Of a stretch of DNA of 64,000 nucleotides, positions 2,114 through 52,830 are shown one piece after another (within the stretch, counting starts at the first letter, position 1; the number at the start of each line of letters is the position of its first letter). The DNA comes from Sedimentisphaerales bacterium (GTDB lineage Bacteria; Planctomycetota; Phycisphaerae; Sedimentisphaerales; UBA12454), in assembly GCA_049518795.1 (NCBI GenBank), contig JBEKRK010000001.1, positions 654,477 through 718,476 on the forward strand, read 5' to 3'. The position numbers and the translations under genes are program-made. The notes under the pieces are model-generated. The model did no database searches. It saw only the letters and a list, made by a program, of their open reading frames with translations, and was not told the origin of the DNA.

Positions 2114-5100
2114 ATGCCCAAAAGAACAGATATCCACAAAATAATGATAATAGGCTCCGGTCCTATAGTAATAGGCCAGGCTTGTGAATTTGACTATTCC
2201 GGCGCCCAGGCCTGCAAGGCCCTGAAAAAAGAAGGTTTCGAGGTCGTGCTGGTCAACAGCAATCCTGCAACTATTATGACCGACCCGGAACTGGCCGACC
2301 GCACCTATATCGAGCCGATTACTCCGGAAATGGTTGAAAAAATCATTAAAAAAGAAAAGCCGGACTGCCTCCTGCCGACACTCGGCGGACAAACCGGACT
2401 TAATACCGCTGTCGCACTTGCGGAAAGCGGCGTCCTGAAAAAATATAATGTCAAACTTATCGGCGCTGATTTGGCCACGATAAAAAAGGCTGAGGAACGC
2501 GACAGATTCAAGAAAATCATTCTCGATATCGGCCTGAAAGTGCCGAAAAGCGGCTACGCCCACAACTGGGAAGAAGCTCAAAAAATTGTCGAGCAGGTCG
2601 GTTTTCCCGCGATTATCCGCCCTTCTTATACATTAGGCGGAACAGGCGGAAACGTCGCTTATAACGCTGAAGAATACAAGGAATTCATATGTTGGGGATT
2701 GAATCTGAGTCCAAAAAGACAGGTGTTGGTTGAAGAATCGGTCCTTGGCTGGAAAGAATATGAACTGGAAGTGATGCGCGACAAAAAAGACAACGTTGTG
2801 ATTGTCTGCTCGATAGAAAATCTTGACCCGATGGGAATCCATACCGGCGACAGCATAACAGTGGCACCTGCTCAGACGCTCACCGACAAGGAATACCAGA
2901 CGATGCGCGATGCGGCGCTGAAAATTATGAGGGCCATCGGCGTCGAAACAGGCGGCTCGAATATCCAGTTTGCCGTTAATCCCGAAACCGGCAAAATGTG
3001 TGTAATCGAAATGAATCCGCGAGTTTCGAGAAGCTCGGCACTTGCCTCAAAGGCTACCGGTTTCCCGATTGCAAAAATCGCCTCGCTGCTGGCCGTAGGT
3101 TTCTCCCTCGATGAAATACCAAACGACATAACCAAAAGGACGCCTGCCTGCTTTGAGCCTACAATCGACTACTGTGTAGTTAAATGGCCAAGATTCACCT
3201 TCGAAAAATTTCCGGCAACAAAACCGGAACTGACTATCCAGATGAAAAGCGTCGGCGAAGCAATGGCAATCGGAAGAACATTTAAGGAGGCATTCCAGAA
3301 GGCAATCCGCTCGCTTGAAATAAACAGATATTCGCTTGATAGAAAACATATCGACTCAACAATCGACAACGACCGGCTCAAACAATTGCTGCGGACCAAC
3401 CGCTGGGACAAAATCTGGTATGTCGCCGAGGCTCTCAGAAGAAAACTGCCGGTGAGTGAAATTTATGAGCTTACAAAAATCGACCCCTGGTTTTTGAACA
3501 ACATAGACCAGATTGTCCAGTTCGAGGACAAAATAAGCATTAAAAATCTCAAACAAGCCAAAAAATTAGGCTTCAGCGATAAATATATAGCGTCAAAATT
3601 GAATATTACCGAGCCGCAGCTTAGAAAACAGCGGGTTACAGATAGAATTTCCGCCGTTTATAAGATTGTCGATACCTGCGGCGCAGAATTTGAGGCAAAT
3701 ACGCCTTATTTGTATTCGACTTATGAAGACCAGTGCGAGGCAAACCCGACAAAGAGAAAAAAAGTCATAATTCTCGGCGGCGGGCCAAACCGAATCGGGC
3801 AGGGAATCGAATTCGACTACTGCTGCTGCCATGCGGCATTTGCACTGAAAGAAATCGGTATCGAATCCATAATGGTCAACTGCAACCCCGAAACGGTAAG
3901 CACGGATTACGACACATCAGACAGACTTTATTTTGAGCCTTTGACTTATGAAGACGTGATGAACATTGTCGAAAAAGAAAAGCCCGACGGCATTATCGTT
4001 CAGTTCGGAGGCCAAACGCCGCTGAAACTTTCAAACGCCCTTTCAAAAGCCGGCGTGAAAATCATCGGCACAAGTCCCGACAGCATCGACGCCGCCGAGG
4101 ACAGAAAACGGTTTAACAAAATAGTCGAAAAATTAAAGCTCAATCAGCCGCCGAGCGGAACAGCTATGAATTATGAGCAGACAGTCAAAATCGCAAAGAA
4201 ATTAGGCTATCCTCTGCTTATACGGCCATCGTTCGTATTGGGCGGAAGAGCGATGCAAATAGTTTATGACGAAACAGAATTGAAAAGCTGCGTCGAAAAC
4301 GCAATAGCCGTTTCGGAGCAGCATCCGATACTCATCGACAAATTCCTCGACGACGCAATGGAACTTGACGTTGACGCAATAAGCGACGGCAAAATTGTCG
4401 TTATCGGCGGAGTTATGGAACATATCGAGGAGGCGGGTATCCATTCGGGCGACAGCGCCTGCTCTCTGCCGCCGTTTTCGTTAAGCCCCGCCTTAATCAA
4501 GGAAATAAAACGGCAGACTAAAATGCTCGCACTGGAACTGAATGTGATAGGCTTGATGAATGTCCAGTTCGCTGTAAAAGACGGCCAGATTTATATACTC
4601 GAAGTCAATCCGCGAGCTTCAAGAACAGTGCCGTTTGTCAGCAAGGCAATCGGCGTGCCGCTGGCCAAGCTGGCCGCGAAGGTTATGGCAGGAAAAACAC
4701 TTAAAGAACTCGGATTCACAGAAGAGGTGCATCGCAGTTACTTTTCCGTTAAGGAAGCGGTATTTCCATTCCTGAAATTCCCCGGCTGCGATACGCTGCT
4801 TGGGCCTGAAATGCTATCGACCGGCGAAGTAATGGGACTGTCAGATGATTTCGGTATCGCTTACGCGAAATCACAAATTGCCGCGGGCAATTCTCTGCCG
4901 ACAAACGGAAATGTTTTTATCAGCGTTAAAGACGCTGATAAGCCAAAGGCTGTTCAAATAGCCAAAAAACTTCACCAGATGGGATTTAAACTCCTCGCTA
5001 CAAAGGGAACCTGTATCGAGTTAATTAAGAACAACGTGCCTTCTGAATTCGTATTGAAAATGGCCGAAGGCAGACCGCACATAGTAGATTTAATTATAAA

Positions 5101-6702: not shown

Positions 6703-7416
6703 ATGGGCGAACAGATAAAGCAACAAAAAAGAAGACTGCCAAAAGCAGGAACTATCGAGGTCGCGCCATCAGTTCTAAGCGCGGATTTCGCAAATCTTGC
6801 CGCTGAAATCGCGGATATCGAAAAGGCAGGCGTGAAAATAGTCCACCTCGACGTGATGGACGGCCATTTCGTGCCGAACATAACCTTTGGCCCCCCTGTT
6901 ATTGAAAAGCTGCGAAAATACTCGAACCTCGTTTTCGACGCCCATTTAATGATAAGCGAGCCGGAAAGATACGCCGATGATTTTATAAAGGCAGGCGTTG
7001 ACCATATCACCTTCCATATAGAAGTAGTGCCAAACCCAACAGACTTTATCAAAAAACTCCACGGTTCCGGCATTACGGCAGGATTGTGTCTTAATCCAGA
7101 AACGCCGGTATCGAAAATCGAAAAATACGCTTCACTGGCGGATATGATTCTTGTAATGACGGTCCATCCGGGGTTTGGAGGTCAGCATTTCATTCAGGAC
7201 GCTGCTGAGAAAATAAAGCCTATTCGTCAAATAGTCGGACCGAATATCCGCATTGAGGTTGACGGCGGAATCGACCCGGATACCACTCCTATTGTTACCT
7301 CTCTTGGAGCAGATACGCTCGTAGCAGGCAATGCAATATTCTCAAAGCCCAATCGCGCTGCGGCTATTGAAGCAATCCGAAAAGCTTGTAAACCCCCACA
7401 CCTATTTATATTATGA
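6703..7416 (+). CDS. rpe: ribulose-phosphate 3-epimerase
   Basis: PSVLSADFANL, HLDVMDGHFVPN and VDGGI motifs. SD gaggga lies upstream of the ATG. The last 8 codons lie inside inverted-repeat cassette D. Confidence 0.93.
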   Translation: MGEQIKQQKRRLPKAGTIEVAPSVLSADFANLAAEIADIEKAGVKIVHLDVMDGHFVPNITFGPPVIEKLRKYSNLVFDAHLMISEPERYADDFIKAGVDHITFHIEVVPNPTDFIKKLHGSGITAGLCLNPETPVSKIEKYASLADMILVMTVHPGFGGQHFIQDAAEKIKPIRQIVGPNIRIEVDGGIDPDTTPIVTSLGADTLVAGNAIFSKPNRAAAIEAIRKACKPPHLFIL

Positions 7417-7496
7417 CGTCAAAATGGAAGAAATACCCAAAATTACTTTGGCCGGCTTTAAAAAAAACACAACCAAAGGATAAATAGGTGTGGGGG
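7393..7496. repeat. inverted-repeat cassette D (104 nt, 17 bp perfect arms) spanning the rpe 3' end
   Basis: 7393-7409 cccccacacctatttat is the exact reverse complement of 7480-7496 ataaataggtgtggggg. Confidence 0.9.
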
Positions 7497-7526
7497 TAAA
7501 TAACACTCGATTTTTACAAACAATTC

Positions 7527-7535
7527 TGATATAAT
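7527..7535 (+). promoter_or_regulatory. extended -10 promoter element (TGaTATAAT) upstream of accD
   Basis: TG at 7527-7528 and TATAAT at 7530-7535. No good -35. Confidence 0.4.
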
Positions 7536-7551
7536 CTCCCCTGCTTTAACA

Positions 7552-8424
7552 ATGAGTATGATTAAAACTATGGCTAAAAAACCAAAAGCAAGCTGGGACG
7601 GCTTTAGTCTAAAGCCAAGAAAAGAGATGCCGGAAGGCCTGTGGCTCAAATGCCCCGGATGCGGGAAAACTCTCTTCAAAAAGTCTGTTACAGAAAATAT
7701 GGATGTCTGTCCAGAATGTAACTATCATTTTCGTATTGGAGCAGGCAAAAGGCTCAAATACCTCGTTGACGAAGGCTCCTTTGAAGAGATGCTGGCTGAT
7801 ATGGTTACGGCTGACCCGCTGGATTTCCAATTTCGCGGGACTTCATATAAAGAACGTGCAAAGGAGGCTGAAAAGGCTGCGGCAGGCAAAGAGGCAATGC
7901 TTATCGGCAAGGCATTTATAAAGGGAAGGCCGTTGATGCTCGCTGTAATGGATTTCGACTACTTAGGCGGTTCAATGGGTGCTGTTGTGGGCGAAAAATT
8001 GAGCGTCGCTATTGAAAAGGCAATAGAAGATTCACTGCCTCTTGTTGTAGTAAGCTCGACAGGCGGGGCAAGAATGCACGAAGGCGTTGTTTCGCTTGGT
8101 CAAATGGCAAAGACCAGCGCGGCACTGGCCAAATTAGACGATAGCGGTGGTCTTTTTATATCGGTTTTGACAGACCCGACTACTGGCGGAGTTACGGCAA
8201 GCTATGCGATGTTAGGAGATGTTATTATCGCTGAACCCGGCGCGTTAATAGGTTTTGCCGGGCCGCGAACAATATATGAGACAATTAAGGTCGCATTGCC
8301 TAAAGGTTTTCAAAGGGCTGAATTCCTGCTCGAACACGGCTTTGTCGATTCGATTGTCCACCGCAAAGACTTAAGAAGCGAGATAGCCCGCCTGATAGAC
8401 TACTGCGGTAAAAATCCAACGTAA
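7552..8424 (+). CDS. accD: acetyl-CoA carboxylase carboxyltransferase beta subunit
   Basis: N-terminal Zn ribbon CPGCGKTL...CPECNYH followed by a carboxyltransferase domain (GGSMG, GGARMHEG). Confidence 0.93.
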   Translation: MSMIKTMAKKPKASWDGFSLKPRKEMPEGLWLKCPGCGKTLFKKSVTENMDVCPECNYHFRIGAGKRLKYLVDEGSFEEMLADMVTADPLDFQFRGTSYKERAKEAEKAAAGKEAMLIGKAFIKGRPLMLAVMDFDYLGGSMGAVVGEKLSVAIEKAIEDSLPLVVVSSTGGARMHEGVVSLGQMAKTSAALAKLDDSGGLFISVLTDPTTGGVTASYAMLGDVIIAEPGALIGFAGPRTIYETIKVALPKGFQRAEFLLEHGFVDSIVHRKDLRSEIARLIDYCGKNPT

Positions 8425-8434
8425 AAATCATACT

Positions 8435-8462
8435 TTGCAATCCACATTTTTCTGCGTATAAT
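8435..8462 (+). promoter_or_regulatory. sigma70-type promoter TTGCAA-N16-TATAAT directly upstream of hisC (near-leaderless)
   Basis: -35 at 8435-8440 and -10 at 8457-8462. The hisC ATG is at 8473 with no SD in between. Confidence 0.55.
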
Positions 8463-8472
8463 CCAAACCATT

Positions 8473-9531
8473 ATGGGTTATTTCCGTGAAAATATCGAAA
8501 AAATGGCAGGCTATGAGCCGGGATTTCAGCCAAAAGAAGCCGATGTAGTCAAGCTCAATACCAATGAAAATCCATACCCGCCAAGTCCAAAAGCAATCGA
8601 AACAATAAGGAATATAAACCCAGACCAGCTAAGAAGATACCCTCAGTCAATGGCCGATACCTTCAGAGAGGCTGTTGCTGAAATTTTAGACGTTGAATGC
8701 GAAAATATTATCTGCACCAACGGCGGCGATGAATTATTAAATATGACAATCAGGGCTTGTTGCGATGAAAACCGGCCGCTTGCGTATCCGACGCCGAGCT
8801 ATACGCTTTATCCAGTGCTGGCTCAAATCGCAAATGCCCCTGTAATTGAAATTCCATTCGACAGCGAATTTAATCTGCCTGCGAAACTCGCTTCAAGCGG
8901 CGCGGCATTGACAATCGTCTGCAATCCAAACGCACCAAGCGGAACATTCACACCAAAAGAAGAACTGGCGCAGCTTGCCGAGGAATTAAAAGGACTGCTT
9001 CTGATTGATGAGGCTTATGTAGATTTCGCAGAGGACAACTGCCTTGAGCTTGTCCAAAAATTCGACAATGTGATTATCCTCCGCTCGATGAGCAAGGGCT
9101 ATTCGCTGGCAGGACTTCGATTCGGGTTCGGCATAGCAAACGAAAAAATAATTAAAGGTCTTGAAAAGGTAAAAGATTCTTATAATGCAGATGCTGTTTC
9201 AATAGCGGCAGCCACAGCGGCAATACAAGACCAGCAGTATTTTAAAAATAATGTTCAGAAAATAAAAATTGAAAGAAAATTCCTGACTGAAAAATTAACG
9301 GAATTAGGTTTTGAGGTGCCTGCCAGCCAGGCAAATTTCGTATTCGCAAAGCCTGCGAAAATCAGGGCTATCGATGTCTATGGGAAACTTAAGGACAGAA
9401 ATATATATGTCCGATACTGGGCTTATCCGGATATAAACGATAAGCTCAGAATTACAGTCGGAACAGGTGAGCAAAATGAAAAACTCATAGGCGCATTAAA
9501 AGAAATCGTAACCGCGGATTTCACAGATTAA
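8473..9531 (+). CDS. hisC: histidinol-phosphate aminotransferase
   Basis: 352 aa class-II aminotransferase: LNTNENPYPPSP, and SMSKGYSLAGLRFG with the PLP lysine. Confidence 0.9.
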   Translation: MGYFRENIEKMAGYEPGFQPKEADVVKLNTNENPYPPSPKAIETIRNINPDQLRRYPQSMADTFREAVAEILDVECENIICTNGGDELLNMTIRACCDENRPLAYPTPSYTLYPVLAQIANAPVIEIPFDSEFNLPAKLASSGAALTIVCNPNAPSGTFTPKEELAQLAEELKGLLLIDEAYVDFAEDNCLELVQKFDNVIILRSMSKGYSLAGLRFGFGIANEKIIKGLEKVKDSYNADAVSIAAATAAIQDQQYFKNNVQKIKIERKFLTEKLTELGFEVPASQANFVFAKPAKIRAIDVYGKLKDRNIYVRYWAYPDINDKLRITVGTGEQNEKLIGALKEIVTADFTD

Positions 9532-9716
9532 CGCGGATTAAATTTGTCTATGTTTTGTGTCTTGCCTGCCCCAGCAAGTTTTTGGCAGGGGTTTCTTACG
9601 AAAAATGTTCTTAGCAACCACCAATCTATGAGTTTTTCGGCTATCTTGGACACCAACTTTGGAATATTTTAAAAAAATTCAATACGGATTCTCGCCATCT
9701 CGCCACGAAAAAATTG

Positions 9717-9745
9717 TTGACTCCTTCATTATTCAATAATATAAT
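9717..9745 (+). promoter_or_regulatory. consensus sigma70 promoter TTGACT-N17-TATAAT for the hisC/hisB insert
   Basis: -35 at 9717-9722 and -10 at 9740-9745, about 50 nt upstream of the ATG at 9795. Confidence 0.65.
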
Positions 9746-9794
9746 ACTTATTCAAAGCCGGAAGAAGGAATTTTGTATCGTAAGGGAAATAAGT

Positions 9795-10265
9795 ATGGCG
9801 TCTCCTGAATTCCAGAAAGACCGTAATATGTCGAGGAACTTATCAGCAAGTCGATCAGACGCAATACAAATCATTGTTTTTACGTTTATCTTGGTGGTCA
9901 TTGCATTTTTTGTTCACTTGAAGTACGGTCCTTTCTTTGTGCAAGTCATATGGGTCGATCGGATTCTTTTTGTCTGCTTTGGGGTTCTACTGGGAGAGAA
10001 TTCCTCACGTTTTGAGTGGCTCCATAGAAAGAAAAGGCAGGGTGTTCTACCGTCGGAGACAATGAGTCTCATGCAGAATCTTGAGGTTAAATTAGTTGCC
10101 TACTGTATTAGTGGCTATATACTCTATAAGGTGCTTGGTTTGACAATTGGTCAAGGCAAAGCGCTCTTAGTTGGGCTTATTCTGACGTTTGGATTAGTTC
10201 GGTGGGAGCTTAAGCGAATTTTCAGCACCATACCGAACTCCAAAAATATGGGGAAAAAGGAGTGA
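9795..10265 (+). CDS. hypothetical polytopic membrane protein (about 4 TM), first gene of the hisC/hisB insert
   Basis: Long ORF with hydrophobic segments. I chose the ATG at 9795 (SD-like aaggga upstream) because a consensus promoter lies inside the longer 9714 ORF call. Confidence 0.5.
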   Translation: MASPEFQKDRNMSRNLSASRSDAIQIIVFTFILVVIAFFVHLKYGPFFVQVIWVDRILFVCFGVLLGENSSRFEWLHRKKRQGVLPSETMSLMQNLEVKLVAYCISGYILYKVLGLTIGQGKALLVGLILTFGLVRWELKRIFSTIPNSKNMGKKE

Positions 10266-10694
10266 ATGAATGTGGAGAACCGAGTGATTTTAATTGCCGC
10301 AGCTCTCAGTGCATTATATTTCGGCGTGCAGTTTTTACGCATTTTGCCGATTTCTCTGCGTCTTGTTCAGGCATTGTGGATAGGTAAGGTTCGTTGGCCA
10401 GGGTCTCCGACTCACGATCCAGATTCCAGAATAAGACTGGCAGAACAGTGGCTATGTAGTCCGCCACAATACCTCTTTCCATCCTTTTTCAAGCATGCAT
10501 TGGGCGTCTTGGCTGCCTTTGTACTATCCACCATAATCACTTTGAATTATTTCTTCTTCTGGCTTGTTCCCTTACCCGGAAGGGACTGGATTGTATTTGG
10601 ACTTCTGCTATTTGCTGTCGTTATTGGTGGGTGTTTATATCTCAAGCGAGCCCTATACTATTTGCAGATCATTAAAACAATGTTATCAGAGTAA
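10266..10694 (+). CDS. hypothetical membrane protein (about 3 TM)
   Basis: Its ATG directly abuts the stop of the previous gene (tgaATG). Three hydrophobic helices; no recognisable motif. Confidence 0.5.
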   Translation: MNVENRVILIAAALSALYFGVQFLRILPISLRLVQALWIGKVRWPGSPTHDPDSRIRLAEQWLCSPPQYLFPSFFKHALGVLAAFVLSTIITLNYFFFWLVPLPGRDWIVFGLLLFAVVIGGCLYLKRALYYLQIIKTMLSE

Positions 10695-10709
10695 TAGGAG
10701 AATAAAAGA

Positions 10710-11420
10710 ATGGATAATGCAATTGATTCTAAGATTCTCGAAAAAGTTATGGAATCGCCACTAGTTGTTGACGACTTATGGCAAGCAAAACATGGTACTC
10801 CACAAGACCCGCACGGATTGAATGCATGCCTTCGTTTAGACAAACTTCTAGGTGGCACGGGAAAACCAGACAGTGATATTGCCATCGAATTAAGCTATAA
10901 TGCTGGTAATTATATAGATTTTCTTATGACGCCTGATGAATATCCTGAACATTTGAAAATGAAGGCCGACCGCGAATTCCAACCATTTGGAAAAGAACCG
11001 GAGTGGATAATTCCACAGGGCTTTCATAAGGATGGATGGTTTTGGGCTTCTTTCGATAAGTTAGTCAATAAGCAAATACAAGCTAAACTTAGGAGCCGAT
11101 TTTCTATGGCTTTAATAGCTATTGATAAACCAGCTCGAACCAGATATATATATCCTTGGCAACAGGCCGTCAGCGCCAATCATACATTAGCGGTTTGGAA
11201 CCCTTCGACTTTAGAGCCGATATTTATGAGAATTTCTTCATGTTATATTAAGATTAGGCACACAAAAGCTTACCAAGTACATTATAGCCAGCAAGGCCGT
11301 GAATGTATTAAAGTCCCGATTTTAATTAAACCTGGTTTTGAACAGATGTTTACGTTTCAGACAATTCTCTCAGGTGAAGAAAAAACTGTGTTTGACGCTT
11401 TTATATCAAATCTGGCATGA
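10710..11420 (+). CDS. hypothetical soluble protein, 236 aa, no recognisable domain
   Basis: Intact ORF 15 nt after the previous gene. Codon choices (cca, ggt, cta) look different from the flanking his genes. Confidence 0.55.
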   Translation: MDNAIDSKILEKVMESPLVVDDLWQAKHGTPQDPHGLNACLRLDKLLGGTGKPDSDIAIELSYNAGNYIDFLMTPDEYPEHLKMKADREFQPFGKEPEWIIPQGFHKDGWFWASFDKLVNKQIQAKLRSRFSMALIAIDKPARTRYIYPWQQAVSANHTLAVWNPSTLEPIFMRISSCYIKIRHTKAYQVHYSQQGRECIKVPILIKPGFEQMFTFQTILSGEEKTVFDAFISNLA

Positions 11421-11643
11421 ATTGCCGCAGATATGATATTTGGTTACCTTATGAAGAAGTGTCCTATAACCATAAGCTGACTGAAGCATAAGAAAACCTT
11501 ATCCCGTAATAATCAAACCGAATGTCCCATATTTTTAATTCGTCGCTTGTGTTGTGAATCTTGCGCCTTTTTGCGCTGAAAAAAATTCGTGCAATCCGCG
11601 AAATCTGCGGTTAAAATAAGCAAAACTTGATAAGGATACCTTT

Positions 11644-12228
11644 ATGAAAGAAAGAATCGCAAAAATAACGAGAAAAACAAAAGAAACGGACATCAGCGTT
11701 CAAATCAACCTCGACGGCGAAGGCAAATATGAAATAGATAGCGGCATAGGCTTTTTAGACCATATGCTCTGCCATCTGAGCAAACACAGCAAGATAGATT
11801 TGGTCCTTAAAGCAAAAGGCGACCTTGAAGTTGACCAGCATCACACGGTCGAAGATGTAGCGATATGCTTAGGAGAGGTGATTATCGAGGCGCTCGGCGA
11901 TAAAAAAGGCATCGCCCGCTATGGCAACAGCTCTGTGCCGATGGAAGATGCACTTGCGAATGTCGCTGTTGACCTTTCAGGCAGACCTTTCTGCGTTTAC
12001 AACGTGCAGTATAGAACGGAAAAGGTCGGCGATTTCGATGTCGAGTGCGTTGAGGAGCTACTGAGAAGTTTCTCAAATCACGGAAAGTTCAACCTGCATA
12101 TAACCGTGCCGCACGGCACAAACAGTCATCATATCGCTGAGGCAGTATTCAAGGCATTGGGACAGGCATTAGGACAGGCTGTTAAAATCAGCGGCAAGGA
12201 TATTCCAAGCACAAAGGGTTCGCTGTGA
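11644..12228 (+). CDS. hisB: imidazoleglycerol-phosphate dehydratase
   Basis: RKTKETDI, GFLDHML, DQHHTVED and NSHHIAEA motifs. Confidence 0.93.
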   Translation: MKERIAKITRKTKETDISVQINLDGEGKYEIDSGIGFLDHMLCHLSKHSKIDLVLKAKGDLEVDQHHTVEDVAICLGEVIIEALGDKKGIARYGNSSVPMEDALANVAVDLSGRPFCVYNVQYRTEKVGDFDVECVEELLRSFSNHGKFNLHITVPHGTNSHHIAEAVFKALGQALGQAVKISGKDIPSTKGSL

Positions 12229-50440: not shown

Positions 50441-51481
50441 TCAATAGCCATATCTGTTTTTAATATATGATAGCCAGTCTTTCCACTTGCCGTTGGAGTC
50501 ATTCTCTCTAACCCAGCTTACAAACTGTTGGTGCGAGAAGCTTGCGAACCCAACCTTGCCTTCAAAAATGCTACCCCATCCGATTCTGAAATCATCTATT
50601 CCGGAAGATTTTAAGCAGCTTATAAGGGTTTGGTTGTCTTGGTCATACGCTACACACGATATAACAAATTCATACTTGCCTGACTGAGCAATGCCCTCTG
50701 CCAATGCCTGTTGCCGGAAAAGCTGGTAACCATTCGTAGCAGCCGGACATGTTTTGAGTGTTCGCTTTCCATTCTCAGAGACCTTAATAAAGTCCCAATA
50801 TTTCCTGTTGGTATGATTTCCAGCTTCCCATTTATTCATATAGCATGTGTCTTCTGTATTACCCAAGACCTTTTCAATATCCAGACACCTCTTAATATCC
50901 GGATTGCCATAATCGCTCTTCCGCCCCGAGCAAGGGTAGAATGAATGCTCAGTATATTTATTCTCCGTCAAGACGAGTCCTTTGCCTCCATTAACGACAA
51001 ATGCAACATCAGGCGAGGTCTGGTTTGCCCCTCTTGTCCCCTGTGGCTCCCCAAGGAGTTCAGATGGTTTCAATTTCCCGTCTTCAGCGTATTCCAACTC
51101 GATCCTATCTACAGTTTTGATTTTATTGTTTACAAATTTATTTAGAAATCCAGCCAGCATGTCCTTGTCATCTCGAAAAGAGAAATACAGATTTGCACAG
51201 AGCATCCACGAACTCTTGAGATTATGACAGCCTTTATGTCGCTGGACTCCTTCCTTGTTGAGATATTCAGGAAGAGAATCTTTTATTTCCTCCCACAACC
51301 CGTCCTTCCAGAGATTTTCGGGCAATATCCATGGCCTTTCCACACCGTTTTGTTTACCATGCTCTTGATTACCAATATGCTTTAAACGCCAATCAACCTG
51401 TCGCCTTTGAACATCTGCATCAAAATCTAACATCTTACTCTCCTGATTTTTTGGCCAGCCGGTGTGGGTATTGTTACTCAA
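50441..51481 (-). CDS. hypothetical protein with a PD-(D/E)xK nuclease-like motif
   Basis: SPDVAFVV-x9-LVLTENKYTE fits the PD...(D/E)xK beta-strand pattern. 346 aa and Cys-rich. No other recognisable domain. Confidence 0.45.
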   Translation of the reverse strand: MSNNTHTGWPKNQESKMLDFDADVQRRQVDWRLKHIGNQEHGKQNGVERPWILPENLWKDGLWEEIKDSLPEYLNKEGVQRHKGCHNLKSSWMLCANLYFSFRDDKDMLAGFLNKFVNNKIKTVDRIELEYAEDGKLKPSELLGEPQGTRGANQTSPDVAFVVNGGKGLVLTENKYTEHSFYPCSGRKSDYGNPDIKRCLDIEKVLGNTEDTCYMNKWEAGNHTNRKYWDFIKVSENGKRTLKTCPAATNGYQLFRQQALAEGIAQSGKYEFVISCVAYDQDNQTLISCLKSSGIDDFRIGWGSIFEGKVGFASFSHQQFVSWVRENDSNGKWKDWLSYIKNRYGY

Positions 51482-51496
51482 TATGGTGTCCCCAGA

Positions 51497-51973
51497 TTAT
51501 ACCCGTCTTATTAGATCCTTCATTTCTCTTCTTATCTTATTCAATTTATCTTGAAGTTCGTGATGCTTTTCAAACTTGCCTCTTGTGCCATTACCCTTTG
51601 GTCCGGCTATCCTCAAGATAACAGTTTCTATATCTTTGCTATATCGGTGCTTATCTATTACAAAAAAACTAACCTTATCCCAACGATTTTTGTGCTTATC
51701 CTTTGTATGCCAATCAACTCTACCTAATAAGTTCTGGGCAATACCAACATAATACAATTTTTTGCCTTTGTATAAAGCATAAATTCCGGAGCTATCCCCT
51801 ATTACTTCTTTATATCGTGGTAAAAGGAGCTCAAAACCTTTCCTGTCTTTTTTCTCAAGATACCCTTTTACCAAGGCGCCTTTACAACTCTGCTTGAATA
51901 TTTTTCGCTTTGTTTTCTTTCTTTTAAAACCGCTCATTTTACGCATAATGTTTTTCCTATATTTGCCTAACAT
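51497..51973 (-). CDS. GIY-YIG nuclease family protein with a basic N-terminal extension
   Basis: GIYALYKGKKLYYVGIAQNLLGRV gives GIY-x9-YVG plus the conserved Arg; downstream Glu in DIETVIL. Its stop is 15 nt upstream of the next gene's start. Confidence 0.7.
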   Translation of the reverse strand: MLGKYRKNIMRKMSGFKRKKTKRKIFKQSCKGALVKGYLEKKDRKGFELLLPRYKEVIGDSSGIYALYKGKKLYYVGIAQNLLGRVDWHTKDKHKNRWDKVSFFVIDKHRYSKDIETVILRIAGPKGNGTRGKFEKHHELQDKLNKIRREMKDLIRRV

Positions 51974-52082
51974 TGTTTATATTGATCCGCATAACATCCC
52001 AAATATCATTGCGCCACCTTAATATGGTAAATCAGGGTTTAAATCAATAAATCTGTACTAAAAACTTATCATCCCATGCTGT

Positions 52083-52190
52083 TTATGCGGAGAAACCTTC
52101 TTTCTTCATTCTCTTCGCAAGCCGTTTCTCTTTTAACGTTCTTTGTGCTTTCTTTTTTACATCTCTTTTAGCATCACGACCTTTAGACAT
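52083..52190 (-). CDS. 35-aa highly basic small protein (MSKGRDAKRDVKKKAQRTLKEKRLAKRMKKEGFSA)
   Basis: Not in the ORF track because it is under 60 aa. ATG is preceded by aggaaagga at good SD spacing, and a TTGAGT-N17-TAGAAT promoter lies upstream. Confidence 0.4.
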   Translation of the reverse strand: MSKGRDAKRDVKKKAQRTLKEKRLAKRMKKEGFSA

Positions 52191-52237
52191 ATATTATCCT
52201 TTCCTGTCTACTGAATTCTGTATTCTTTTATATCAAA

Positions 52238-52266
52238 ATTCTATCTCTTTTTCTTTTCAAACTCAA
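52238..52266 (-). promoter_or_regulatory. sigma70 promoter TTGAGT-N17-TAGAAT for the small basic protein / nuclease islet
   Basis: On the minus strand, -35 is at 52261-52266 and -10 at 52238-52243. It shares a 17-nt identical block with the promoter at 56944-56972. Confidence 0.55.
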
Positions 52267-52355
52267 CGATAAAATTTATATTTAGCCGCCGCCATTCAGG
52301 GCGGCGTTACTTCCTTCCTTTTTACTTTCTATATATTGAACGACCAAGGAATTCT

Positions 52356-52475
52356 TTTGCTTTAAGGCGTAATTGCGCAGCGGTAAAAAATTCAATTACA
52401 GACCCGTTGAAGTTTGACTTCAAAAAGGGGCTGTTTGAATTTTACAGTGTTCGCAGAACACCGCCTTAAAGCAAA
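52356..52475. repeat. inverted-repeat cassette F (120 nt, 14 bp perfect arms), intergenic upstream of fhs
   Basis: 52356-52369 tttgctttaaggcg is the exact reverse complement of 52462-52475 cgccttaaagcaaa. It also has internal sub-hairpins taattg/caatta and gaagt/acttc. Confidence 0.85.
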
Positions 52476-52646
52476 TCTTCGTGTTTCTTCGTGGTAAACC
52501 ATAAAACCGTGTAAATCTGTGTTAATCTGTGTCCAAAATAATCTCTCTGTGTTCTCCAGAACTCTGTGGCTAAAAAAAGACCGTGAAAACTTGTCCTCGC
52601 GAAGGCGGGGATCTGCGAGATCTGCGGTTAATCCTCGTTTTTACAT

Positions 52647-52671
52647 CCTTACTTCCTTACCTCCTTTACTT
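52647..52671 (+). repeat. tandem 8-mer array (CCTTACTT CCTTACCT CCTTTACTT)
   Basis: The first 16 nt are identical to 60702-60717. Confidence 0.85.
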
Positions 52672-52691
52672 GTGCCTTGTGCTCTTATTCC

Positions 52692-52719
52692 TATACCCTA
52701 AACCCTATCCCCTATACCC
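52692..52719 (+). repeat. tandem 7-mer array (TATACCC TAAACCC TATCCCC TATACCC)
   Basis: Direct reading of the sequence. Confidence 0.85.
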
Positions 52720-52830
52720 TGCTTTTTAGCACAATAGTTCAAAAAAATGCCTTTTCGTTATAGCTTTTTGGCCGTTTTTGAATGAGAATATGCAACTTAC
52801 CCTATGTTACTGATAATAAGGATTATATAG

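Follow-up and report, generated by a model that had tools for sequence, protein, structure and literature searches.

The DNA considered here, hereafter the window, is a stretch of 64,000 nucleotides from a Sedimentisphaerales bacterium (Phycisphaerae, Planctomycetota), and the best matches of its HisC protein are metagenome-assembled genomes (MAGs) of the same order. A cassette of about 2.1 kb (9517 to 11622, forward strand) occupies the junction between hisC and hisB, where the local order reads carA, rpe, accD, hisC, the insert, hisB, ispF, cysS and ruvC. Between hisC (8473 to 9531; Aminotran_1_2, 1.3e-58) and hisB (11644 to 12228; IGPD, 3e-63), and like them on the forward strand, lie orf1 (9795 to 10265), encoding a 156-aa membrane protein, orf2 (10266 to 10694), encoding a 142-aa membrane protein and starting with an ATG that abuts the preceding TGA, and orf3 (10710 to 11420), encoding a 236-aa soluble protein that we call A. 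Since the local gene order mixes in carA, rpe, accD, ispF, cysS and ruvC, the locus is no classical his operon; it is a conserved operon of mixed content, with translational coupling of hisC and hisB. The cassette had been picked out in an earlier sequence-only reading, whose coordinates for the open reading frames (ORFs), the promoter and the repeats were all correct on re-check; hydropathy also agreed with its count of about four transmembrane (TM) segments in the orf1 product and about three (three in our analysis) in that of orf2, and with the soluble nature of A.

In order to place the junction in context, 80 loci were fetched around HisC homologues, and accD, hisC, hisB, ispF and cysS were located in each. 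The order accD-hisC-hisB-ispF-cysS, with hisB directly after hisC, is conserved in about 60 Sedimentisphaerales/Phycisphaerae loci, and the premise that hisC and hisB are normally adjacent thus holds for this lineage: the spacing is 5 to 28 nt in most of these relatives and 14 to 15 nt in the closest ones, L018 (88% HisC identity) and L019, compared to 2.1 kb in the window. In a neighbor-joining tree of HisC, HisB and IspF, the window is sister to L018 and L019, inside the clade with tight junctions; because it is nested among such genomes, the 2.1-kb state is derived and lineage specific. An old vertical resident, considered as an explanation, was ruled out by junction synteny and phylogeny. 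Moreover, an assembly chimera is excluded, as two further assemblies, L016 and L017, match the window at 100% identity over stretches of 20.4 kb and 3.3 kb.

The insert as a whole is supported by the junction gaps, the tree and an alignment to the empty site of six tight-junction relatives, the last of which places the breakpoints at about 9516/9517 and 11622/11623. Compared to the empty site, the last hisC codons, a 7-nt spacer and the first five or so hisB codons have been lost; about 38 nt of the junction were swapped out and none were duplicated. The event is a replacement as much as an insertion. In particular, the hisC product, which ends with EILSEG in the relatives, ends with EIVTADFTD in the window, and the first five codons of hisB (11644 to 11660) read MKERI, compared to MADRK in close relatives. 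The MKERI start resembles those of distant relatives whose junctions hold spacers (MKKRT in L043 and MKERT in L047), which suggests that hisB received its translation start from the insert. No target-site duplication was found at the flanks of the insert, nor any direct repeat beside the repeat arms described below, and neither the insert itself nor its surroundings out to 10 kb include a transposase or integrase gene. Only housekeeping genes surround the cassette over 20 kb, and an Rfam search of positions 9300 to 11800 gave no match.

As for expression signals, a consensus scan of the sigma-70 type located a promoter-like site, TTGACT-N17-TATAAT, at 9717 to 9745 on the forward strand, 50 nt before the orf1 ATG and within a 263-nt noncoding stretch; the consensus promoter previously claimed there is borne out with a match of 11/12, at a level (at least 11/12) reached by 5 sites in the 64 kb against 2.2 expected. 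A terminator-like GC hairpin followed by a T-run lies just past the hisC stop codon (9561 to 9596, forward strand; consensus scan only), while no terminator-like site was found downstream of orf3. The insert promoter would transcribe all three genes and, because of the lack of a terminator-like site after orf3, transcription probably runs on into hisB-ispF-cysS.

Codon usage was compared with that of 36 long host ORFs, each gene being scored for synonymous usage against 5000 length-matched host segments. The insert favors CCA (0.36 versus 0.19 in the host), GGT (0.35 versus 0.16) and CTA (0.12 versus 0.05), at the expense of GGC (0.23 versus 0.49) and CTG (0.09 versus 0.24). The bias that had been noticed by eye therefore stands in its direction, and it is significant for orf1 (2/5000 host segments score as low) and orf2 (0/5000), both of which fall outside the host range, but not for orf3, which is host-like (2589/5000), its GC content at third codon positions (0.32) nevertheless being low. 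The 2.1-kb spacing against 5 to 28 nt, the nesting in the tree and the foreign codons of orf1 and orf2 together support the proposal that this is a horizontally acquired, lineage-specific insert with a promoter-like site.

Homologues of each insert protein were sought in a database of 5.8 billion proteins, which yielded one for orf1 (63% identity), three for orf2 (53 to 59%) and six for A (48 to 58%). Because the homologues, at 48 to 63% identity, keep many invariant positions in the alignments of all three, the ORFs are, judging from conservation, real genes. In orf1, a basic loop, GENSSR..WLHRKKRQGVLPS, is strongly conserved, and the homologue begins at the second Met, so that the true orf1 start may be at 9828; conserved motifs of orf2 are YFG.Q.LRILP, KHALGV and VPL.G. 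None of the three proteins gave a significant match in Pfam, NCBIfam, PADLOC or PHROGs, no transporter family matched, and the PDB was likewise without a match; on these comparisons, orf1, orf2 and orf3 represent rare, undescribed families, in line with the earlier remark that none of them shows a recognized motif. The predicted model of the orf2 product consists of three long helices (predicted local distance difference test [pLDDT], 71.5), and its fold search returned helical bundles only, none of them significant. A holin identity was considered and rejected, as the matches to holin_5 (E 0.26) and phrog_6597 (E 0.33, over 23 residues) are noise and no lysin is present.

A is rare even in very large collections: a profile search of 1.84 billion representative proteins found only 19 relatives, a profile built from a 10-sequence alignment found only two divergent metagenome loci, and no homologue was found in phage collections, plasmid collections or IMG/VR. 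Pfam did not match A or the 19 family members (DUF1795 included), and PDB sequence searches with A, with the 19-member profile and with the profile of a partner family (C, described below) returned nothing. The AlphaFold2 model of A, built from only seven sequences, has a pLDDT of 91.6 and a predicted template modeling score of 0.86. Two domains are predicted, namely, a five-helix domain (residues 1 to 90) and an alpha/beta sandwich (residues 100 to 236), which Foldseek relates to the Mog1/PsbP-like class, with matches to PsbP, DcrB, LpqN, Apa, the DUF1795 chaperones SciW and EagT6, Tsi3 and Tli5/PA3488 (E 1e-4 to 5e-2; template modeling score on the target, 0.45 to 0.59); the best fold matches are 3lyd, 2xb3, 1v2b, 6e8a and 6e5d. 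Furthermore, phage lipoproteins of the Mog1/PsbP-like type match A in a BFVD search. The residues invariant across the 19 members are L23, Y78, P102, W150, Y179 and F228; because these are aromatic, Leu or Pro residues, and no conserved set of acids, bases or nucleophiles occurs among the members, the predicted protein is probably a binding protein rather than an enzyme. Hydropathy identified no TM segment, signal-like segment or lipobox in A.

The neighborhoods of the homologues show how the three families are combined elsewhere. The window carries orf1-orf2-A, whereas L011 carries D-orf1-orf2 (D denotes a membrane protein of 103 aa), and L009 carries A-D-C, with a D homologous to that of L011 (E 4e-15). 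On both L001 and L003 the arrangement is A-B-C, B and C being proteins of 230 to 268 aa with TM and soluble parts. On L005, A is followed by a gene for a 249-aa protein, an insertion sequence (IS) of the rve type and a gene for a 201-aa protein, the last of which is a distant full-length homologue of orf2 (tblastn 7e-5; hhalign 89.8%, E 2e-7); on L010, the neighbors of A to either side are small membrane proteins, unrelated and encoded on the opposite strand. The IS of L005 (2175 to 3694), consisting of an rve integrase-type transposase and an HTH_Tnp_1 ORF between the 249-aa gene and the distant orf2 homologue, has apparently split a once-contiguous cluster. It follows that the families of orf1, orf2, A, C and D form a linked neighborhood network and not a fixed trio; the idea that the trio co-occurs as a unit did not hold, as in other genomes A is paired with different membrane proteins, and orf2 stands by itself or next to orf1. 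That orf1 and orf2 could be homologues of A's other partners, B, C and D, was ruled out by BLASTP and hhalign.

Partner C (L001, 9462 to 10259; L003, 3818 to 4624; L009, 1424 to 2212) is a protein of 262 to 268 aa that begins with a multi-TM region; its C-terminal domain, which is soluble and conserved, shows a strand-rich, Rossmann-like pattern (VVALLDHRKTGY ... LIVLDARADSP ... TIFIVG), and C has no match in Pfam, PADLOC or the PDB. Beyond the partners, the context offers weak and indirect hints of conflict biology: a gene for a TIR-domain protein adjoins the A-B-C locus on L003 and, by eye, a P-loop/TPR protein adjoins A on L099 and a protein with an RNHLAH (HEPN-like) motif adjoins A on L102.

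The edges of the insert are marked by inverted repeats. The left array (9509 to 9539, forward strand) reads TAAC followed by CGCGGATT-t-CACAGATT-aa-CGCGGATT, that is, three units of 9 to 10 nt, and overlaps the new hisC tail (VTADFTD and stop codon); the right array (11584 to 11613, reverse strand) is inverted and reads AATTCGTG-c-AATCCGCG-a-AATCTGCG-GTTA, after which come AAATA and AAGGATACCTTT-ATG of hisB. The inverted arms (9509 to 9529 and 11593 to 11613) are complementary at 18 of 21 positions, and the pairing extends to about 30 nt with one indel. With up to three mismatches, the 21-mer occurs in the 64 kb at the two arm sites only (expected, 0.00), and an equal pairing score at the breakpoint zones was reached in 2/2000 shuffles and in 2/995 equally spaced control pairs.

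The bracketing repeats reported by the sequence-only reading are therefore real, but they are not terminal repeats private to the cassette. Three 9- to 10-nt units in tandem, with the consensus CRCRRATT, make up each arm, and a scan of 63 loci (the window and 62 relatives, 728 kb) found 29 such arrays in 17 of them, with two to four units each and the consensus ACACGGATT / AATCCGTGT, often ending with GGTTAAAA. ORFs of at least 100 aa leave 8.9% of the sequence uncovered, and 20 of the 29 arrays fall there; shuffled sequence gives 0.0 arrays. Both edges of the insert are copies, inverted relative to each other, of this intergenic array, which occurs throughout the lineage. In L072 (4290 to 4373) and L066 (about 4850 to 4930), arrays stand back to back as a hairpin with an AT-rich loop and no cargo, and in L024 (3972/4998), L034 (8565/9028) and L064 (7207, 7646/8712) they are split around cargo; a further array lies at 9023 to 9063 in L043. 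Many others are single, just upstream of start codons or just past stop codons.

The window itself contains three arrays only, two of which flank the insert. The third (52514 to 52531, reverse strand) lies between a REase-ARP/GIY-YIG gene pair, about 540 nt from the nearer gene, and fhs, and a search for a partner array beyond the REase-ARP islet found none. This pair (50441 to 51973, reverse strand), composed of a REase-ARP/PD-(D/E)XK nuclease gene (2.1e-56) and a GIY-YIG gene whose match is weak and below threshold (7.9e-4), is a probable second accessory islet. The third array falls in an unusually long noncoding stretch (51974 to 52830, about 850 nt), together with motifs of the GCCACAGAG type; this second short motif, GCCACAGAG(G/A), and its variants often occur near arrays, as in L043 (7050 to 7100), L072 (4270 to 4290), the hisC-hisB spacer of L047 and the window (52540 to 52572).

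When the 18-nt two-unit array core, CACGGATTWACACGGATT, was searched in IMG/VR, it was found in 25 stretches (L103 to L127; e.g., IMGVR_UViG_3300031885_000054 and IMGVR_UViG_3300009285_002914), with up to eight copies on one 38-kb contig; these units often precede GGTTAAAA, and a start codon often follows the array at a distance of a few to tens of nucleotides. Because the core occurs in these viral-contig stretches, the array element is common to these bacteria and their (pro)viruses. A role of the arrays as promoters (a -10-like TAAAAT in GGTTAAAAT) or as CsrA-type sites was considered and is not claimed. A literature search on GxxExxY and on repetitive extragenic palindromic (REP) elements in Sedimentisphaerales found nothing relevant.

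Other accessory genes have entered the same operon. In L030 (5581 to 7760) and at the same position in L034, the hisC-hisB junction holds a type II restriction-modification (R-M) pair (REase_II, 1.9e-102; MTase_II, 7.8e-173), inserted cleanly, with the hisB start MADRK intact and without arrays. In L043 (65% HisC identity), whose sister lineages have tight junctions, a GH43 beta-xylosidase-type gene occupies the junction (7050 to 9090). Its hisC tail, ending with TTDL (ACCACGGATTT), is homologous to that of the window, and so is its right end (AATCTGTGGTTAAAATA...AAGGATACCTTTATGAAAAAACGA), comprising the right array, the ribosome-binding site (RBS) and the first hisB codons, with homology over about 45 nt before and into hisB; the lineages between the two have tight junctions. 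Since the ends are homologous and the sister lineages of L043 are tight, either one kind of element hit this site on two occasions, or a "landing pad" has passed between lineages, its cargo differing. Moreover, in L024 (3940 to 5056), L034 (8500 to 9084) and L064 (7205 to 8819), cargo bracketed by arrays lies between ispF and cysS, which overlap in the window, and consists of PDDEXK_3 (GxxExxY) genes, an HNH endonuclease and a 188-aa gene with no known identity. The hisC-hisB and ispF-cysS junctions have thus repeatedly taken up accessory genes in this lineage. As for residence in a defense island, which the sequence-only reading had raised, the flanks in the window are housekeeping genes; an R-M pair occupies the junction in L030 and L034, and a TIR gene lies beside one A homologue.

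Taken together, we favor, with a probability of roughly 45%, the interpretation of the cassette as a horizontally acquired accessory islet in the hisC-hisB junction that encodes a membrane module with a cytoplasmic adaptor. The islet would have landed in a translationally coupled junction and slightly remodeled it; the orf1 and orf2 products may form a small inner-membrane complex, and A would be a cytoplasmic, nonenzymatic adaptor or chaperone, whose Mog1/PsbP/Eag-like domain could bind or hold its partners in the membrane and so gate their assembly or activity. Our guess is that the role most likely lies in intergenomic conflict rather than in metabolism, with a membrane-acting effector restrained or triggered by its soluble partner. 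Several observations weigh against this interpretation. The partnership of A with membrane proteins is loose: orf2 homologues on L012 to L015 have neither orf1 nor A alongside, A-family members on L099 and L100 adjoin no small membrane gene, and no homology of orf1 or orf2 to B, C or D was detectable by BLASTP or hhalign. In addition, the fold match of A is moderate (template modeling score on the target, 0.49 to 0.59) and points to a very generic binding fold, the homologous loci are very few and most of their contigs are short, and the histories of the three genes may differ, given that orf3 has a codon usage unlike that of orf1 and orf2.

How the cassette arrived is a separate matter. It is possible, if doubtful, that it is the cargo of a mobile element ending in the arrays, either nonautonomous and mobilized in trans, as a miniature inverted-repeat transposable element (MITE) would be, or a landing pad with contents swapped by recombination; this would explain the arrival and fits any functional reading. 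The inverted arrays exactly at the insert edges, the arrays around other cargo in L024, L034 and L064, the empty hairpins of L072 and L066, the ends that the window shares with the distant GH43-bearing L043 across lineages with tight junctions, and the multiple copies in IMG/VR contigs are all as such an element would leave them. However, because neither a target-site duplication nor a transposase or integrase accompanies the arrays, and because R-M inserts sit at the same junction without arrays, the array as a mobile-element end is kept as a hypothesis; the left array also overlaps what may be ancestral hisC sequence, and the many single arrays near starts and stops fit a REP-like or regulatory decoration of intergenic DNA. 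Alternatively, the arrays would be elements of a REP-like or regulatory kind, which build up at any place with intergenic DNA. A broader and rather improbable proposal would combine an undescribed family of cargo-carrying elements, with CRCGGATT arrays as ends or recombination handles, and an undescribed modular conflict system in which A works with interchangeable orf1, orf2, B, C and D. In that case, the elements, residing in Sedimentisphaerales and their viruses, would move accessory or defense genes into intergenic hairpin loops at operon junctions and re-create the translation start of the downstream gene, and the Mog1/Eag-like cytoplasmic protein would control a membrane effector.

Phage defense, toxin/immunity and transport had all been named as candidate functions, and nothing in our results shows any of them, with no PADLOC match and holin matches at noise level. 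Anti-phage abortive infection, in which A would sense a phage cue in the cytoplasm and release or activate the small membrane proteins, with depolarization of the membrane, appears unlikely. A soluble protein encoded with small polytopic membrane proteins under its own promoter has the appropriate composition, and the R-M pairs at the same junction in L030 and L034, the TIR-domain protein beside A-B-C in L003 and the window array near the REase-ARP/GIY-YIG pair speak for it; yet orf1, orf2, orf3, B, C and D are all without a PADLOC match, searches of phage, plasmid and IMG/VR collections found no homologue of A, the neighbors in the window are housekeeping genes and the family is extremely rare (19 representatives in 1.84 billion). 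An addiction module that stabilizes the islet, with orf1 and/or orf2 as membrane toxins or a holin-like pair and A as the antidote, is the least probable of the functions considered. The small, tightly packed genes, the occurrence in A's fold class of Tsi3 and Tli5/PA3488, immunity proteins from type VI secretion systems (T6SS), and the reshuffling of partners between loci, as in polymorphic toxin systems, would agree with it, but orf2 homologues without A or orf1 alongside are odd for an antidote-dependent toxin, A is also found without membrane partners, and the holin similarities (E 0.26 to 0.33) are not significant. Finally, a harmless accessory role at the membrane (in small-solute transport, envelope stress or signaling, for example), with A as a peripheral subunit, strikes us as fairly improbable: PsbP, DcrB and LpqN-type proteins are indeed peripheral partners of membrane complexes, and no toxin, nuclease or NTPase domain was found, but the distribution is patchy and very rare, the partners reshuffle, orf1 and orf2 have foreign codon usage, and the proteins are too small and have too few TM segments for known transporter families, none of which matched.

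An acquired islet with a membrane module and a cytoplasmic adaptor thus remains our preferred interpretation. The original observation stands, and the interpretation given to it is supported in part: the three genes are not syntenic between hisC and hisB across the lineage, and none of their products matches a known family. The cassette adds three very rare, uncharacterized families to the candidate membrane-acting accessory systems, and one of them (A) comes with a confident structural model and a neighborhood network that links it to small membrane proteins. Furthermore, accessory genes of an uncultured lineage can land repeatedly at a translationally coupled junction within a core biosynthetic operon, and the edges of such inserts are marked by a lineage-wide repeat array common to viral contigs. 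This repeat-array family, which edges the present insert and others, is the most interesting by-product of the analysis; if the arrays mediate cassette exchange, they would offer a handle for finding accessory and defense genes in Phycisphaerae metagenomes and could represent a new mechanism of operon-internal gene gain.

With respect to known mobile and repeated elements, the insert shares terminal inverted repeats with IS and MITE elements, but lacks their target-site duplication and transposase or integrase; ends of the same kind do enclose other cargo in relatives. Like REP elements and bacterial interspersed mosaic elements (BIMEs), the arrays are short, lineage specific, multicopy and enriched in intergenic DNA, form hairpins when back to back and enclose variable cargo genes; different from them, each arm is a tandem of two to four units of 9 to 10 nt ending with GGTTAAAA and not a single palindrome, and no RAYT or other mobilizing enzyme was identified in the 64 kb of this genome covered, no search dedicated to RAYT having been made. 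The "PeSL" promoter/stem-loop cassettes of T4-type phages are mobile regulatory cassettes that flank shuffled genes, and the arrays of the insert resemble them. Compared to integron cassettes, the insert has its own promoter-like site, no integrase within 10 kb and tandem 9- to 10-mers at both ends instead of a single attC. Genomic islets in operons are represented by the R-M pair at the same junction in L030 and L034, but the cargo of our insert has no recognizable domains, and the insert took the place of the junction sequence and did not slip in between a stop codon and an RBS.

As for the encoded proteins, none of orf1, orf2, orf3, B, C and D matches a component model of the defense systems in PADLOC-DB 2.0. 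The PsbP/DcrB/LpqN/Mog1 superfamily provides the best fold matches for A, but its members are secreted or lipid anchored, whereas A has no signal peptide, no lipobox and no sequence similarity to them. The closest analogy may be offered by the Eag (DUF1795) chaperones of the T6SS, which grip the TM helices of effectors (PMC7773334); the structures of SciW and EagT6 have been solved bound to effector TM helices. The C-terminal domain of A resembles these two proteins in its predicted fold (Foldseek E 9e-4 to 2e-2; template modeling score, about 0.5), a fold that is common to many unrelated binders, and A, like them, is cytoplasmic and encoded beside TM-helix-rich proteins. However, A shows no DUF1795 sequence match and carries an extra 90-residue N-terminal helical domain; its partners are free-standing small membrane proteins and not prePAAR/Rhs effectors; and, different from Eag loci, the 20 kb around the cassette contain no T6SS genes, prePAAR/PAAR, Rhs effector or VgrG. 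By analogy, then, the cassette is at most like an Eag chaperone with its TM client, or like a small membrane-effector defense pair, while being a member of neither.

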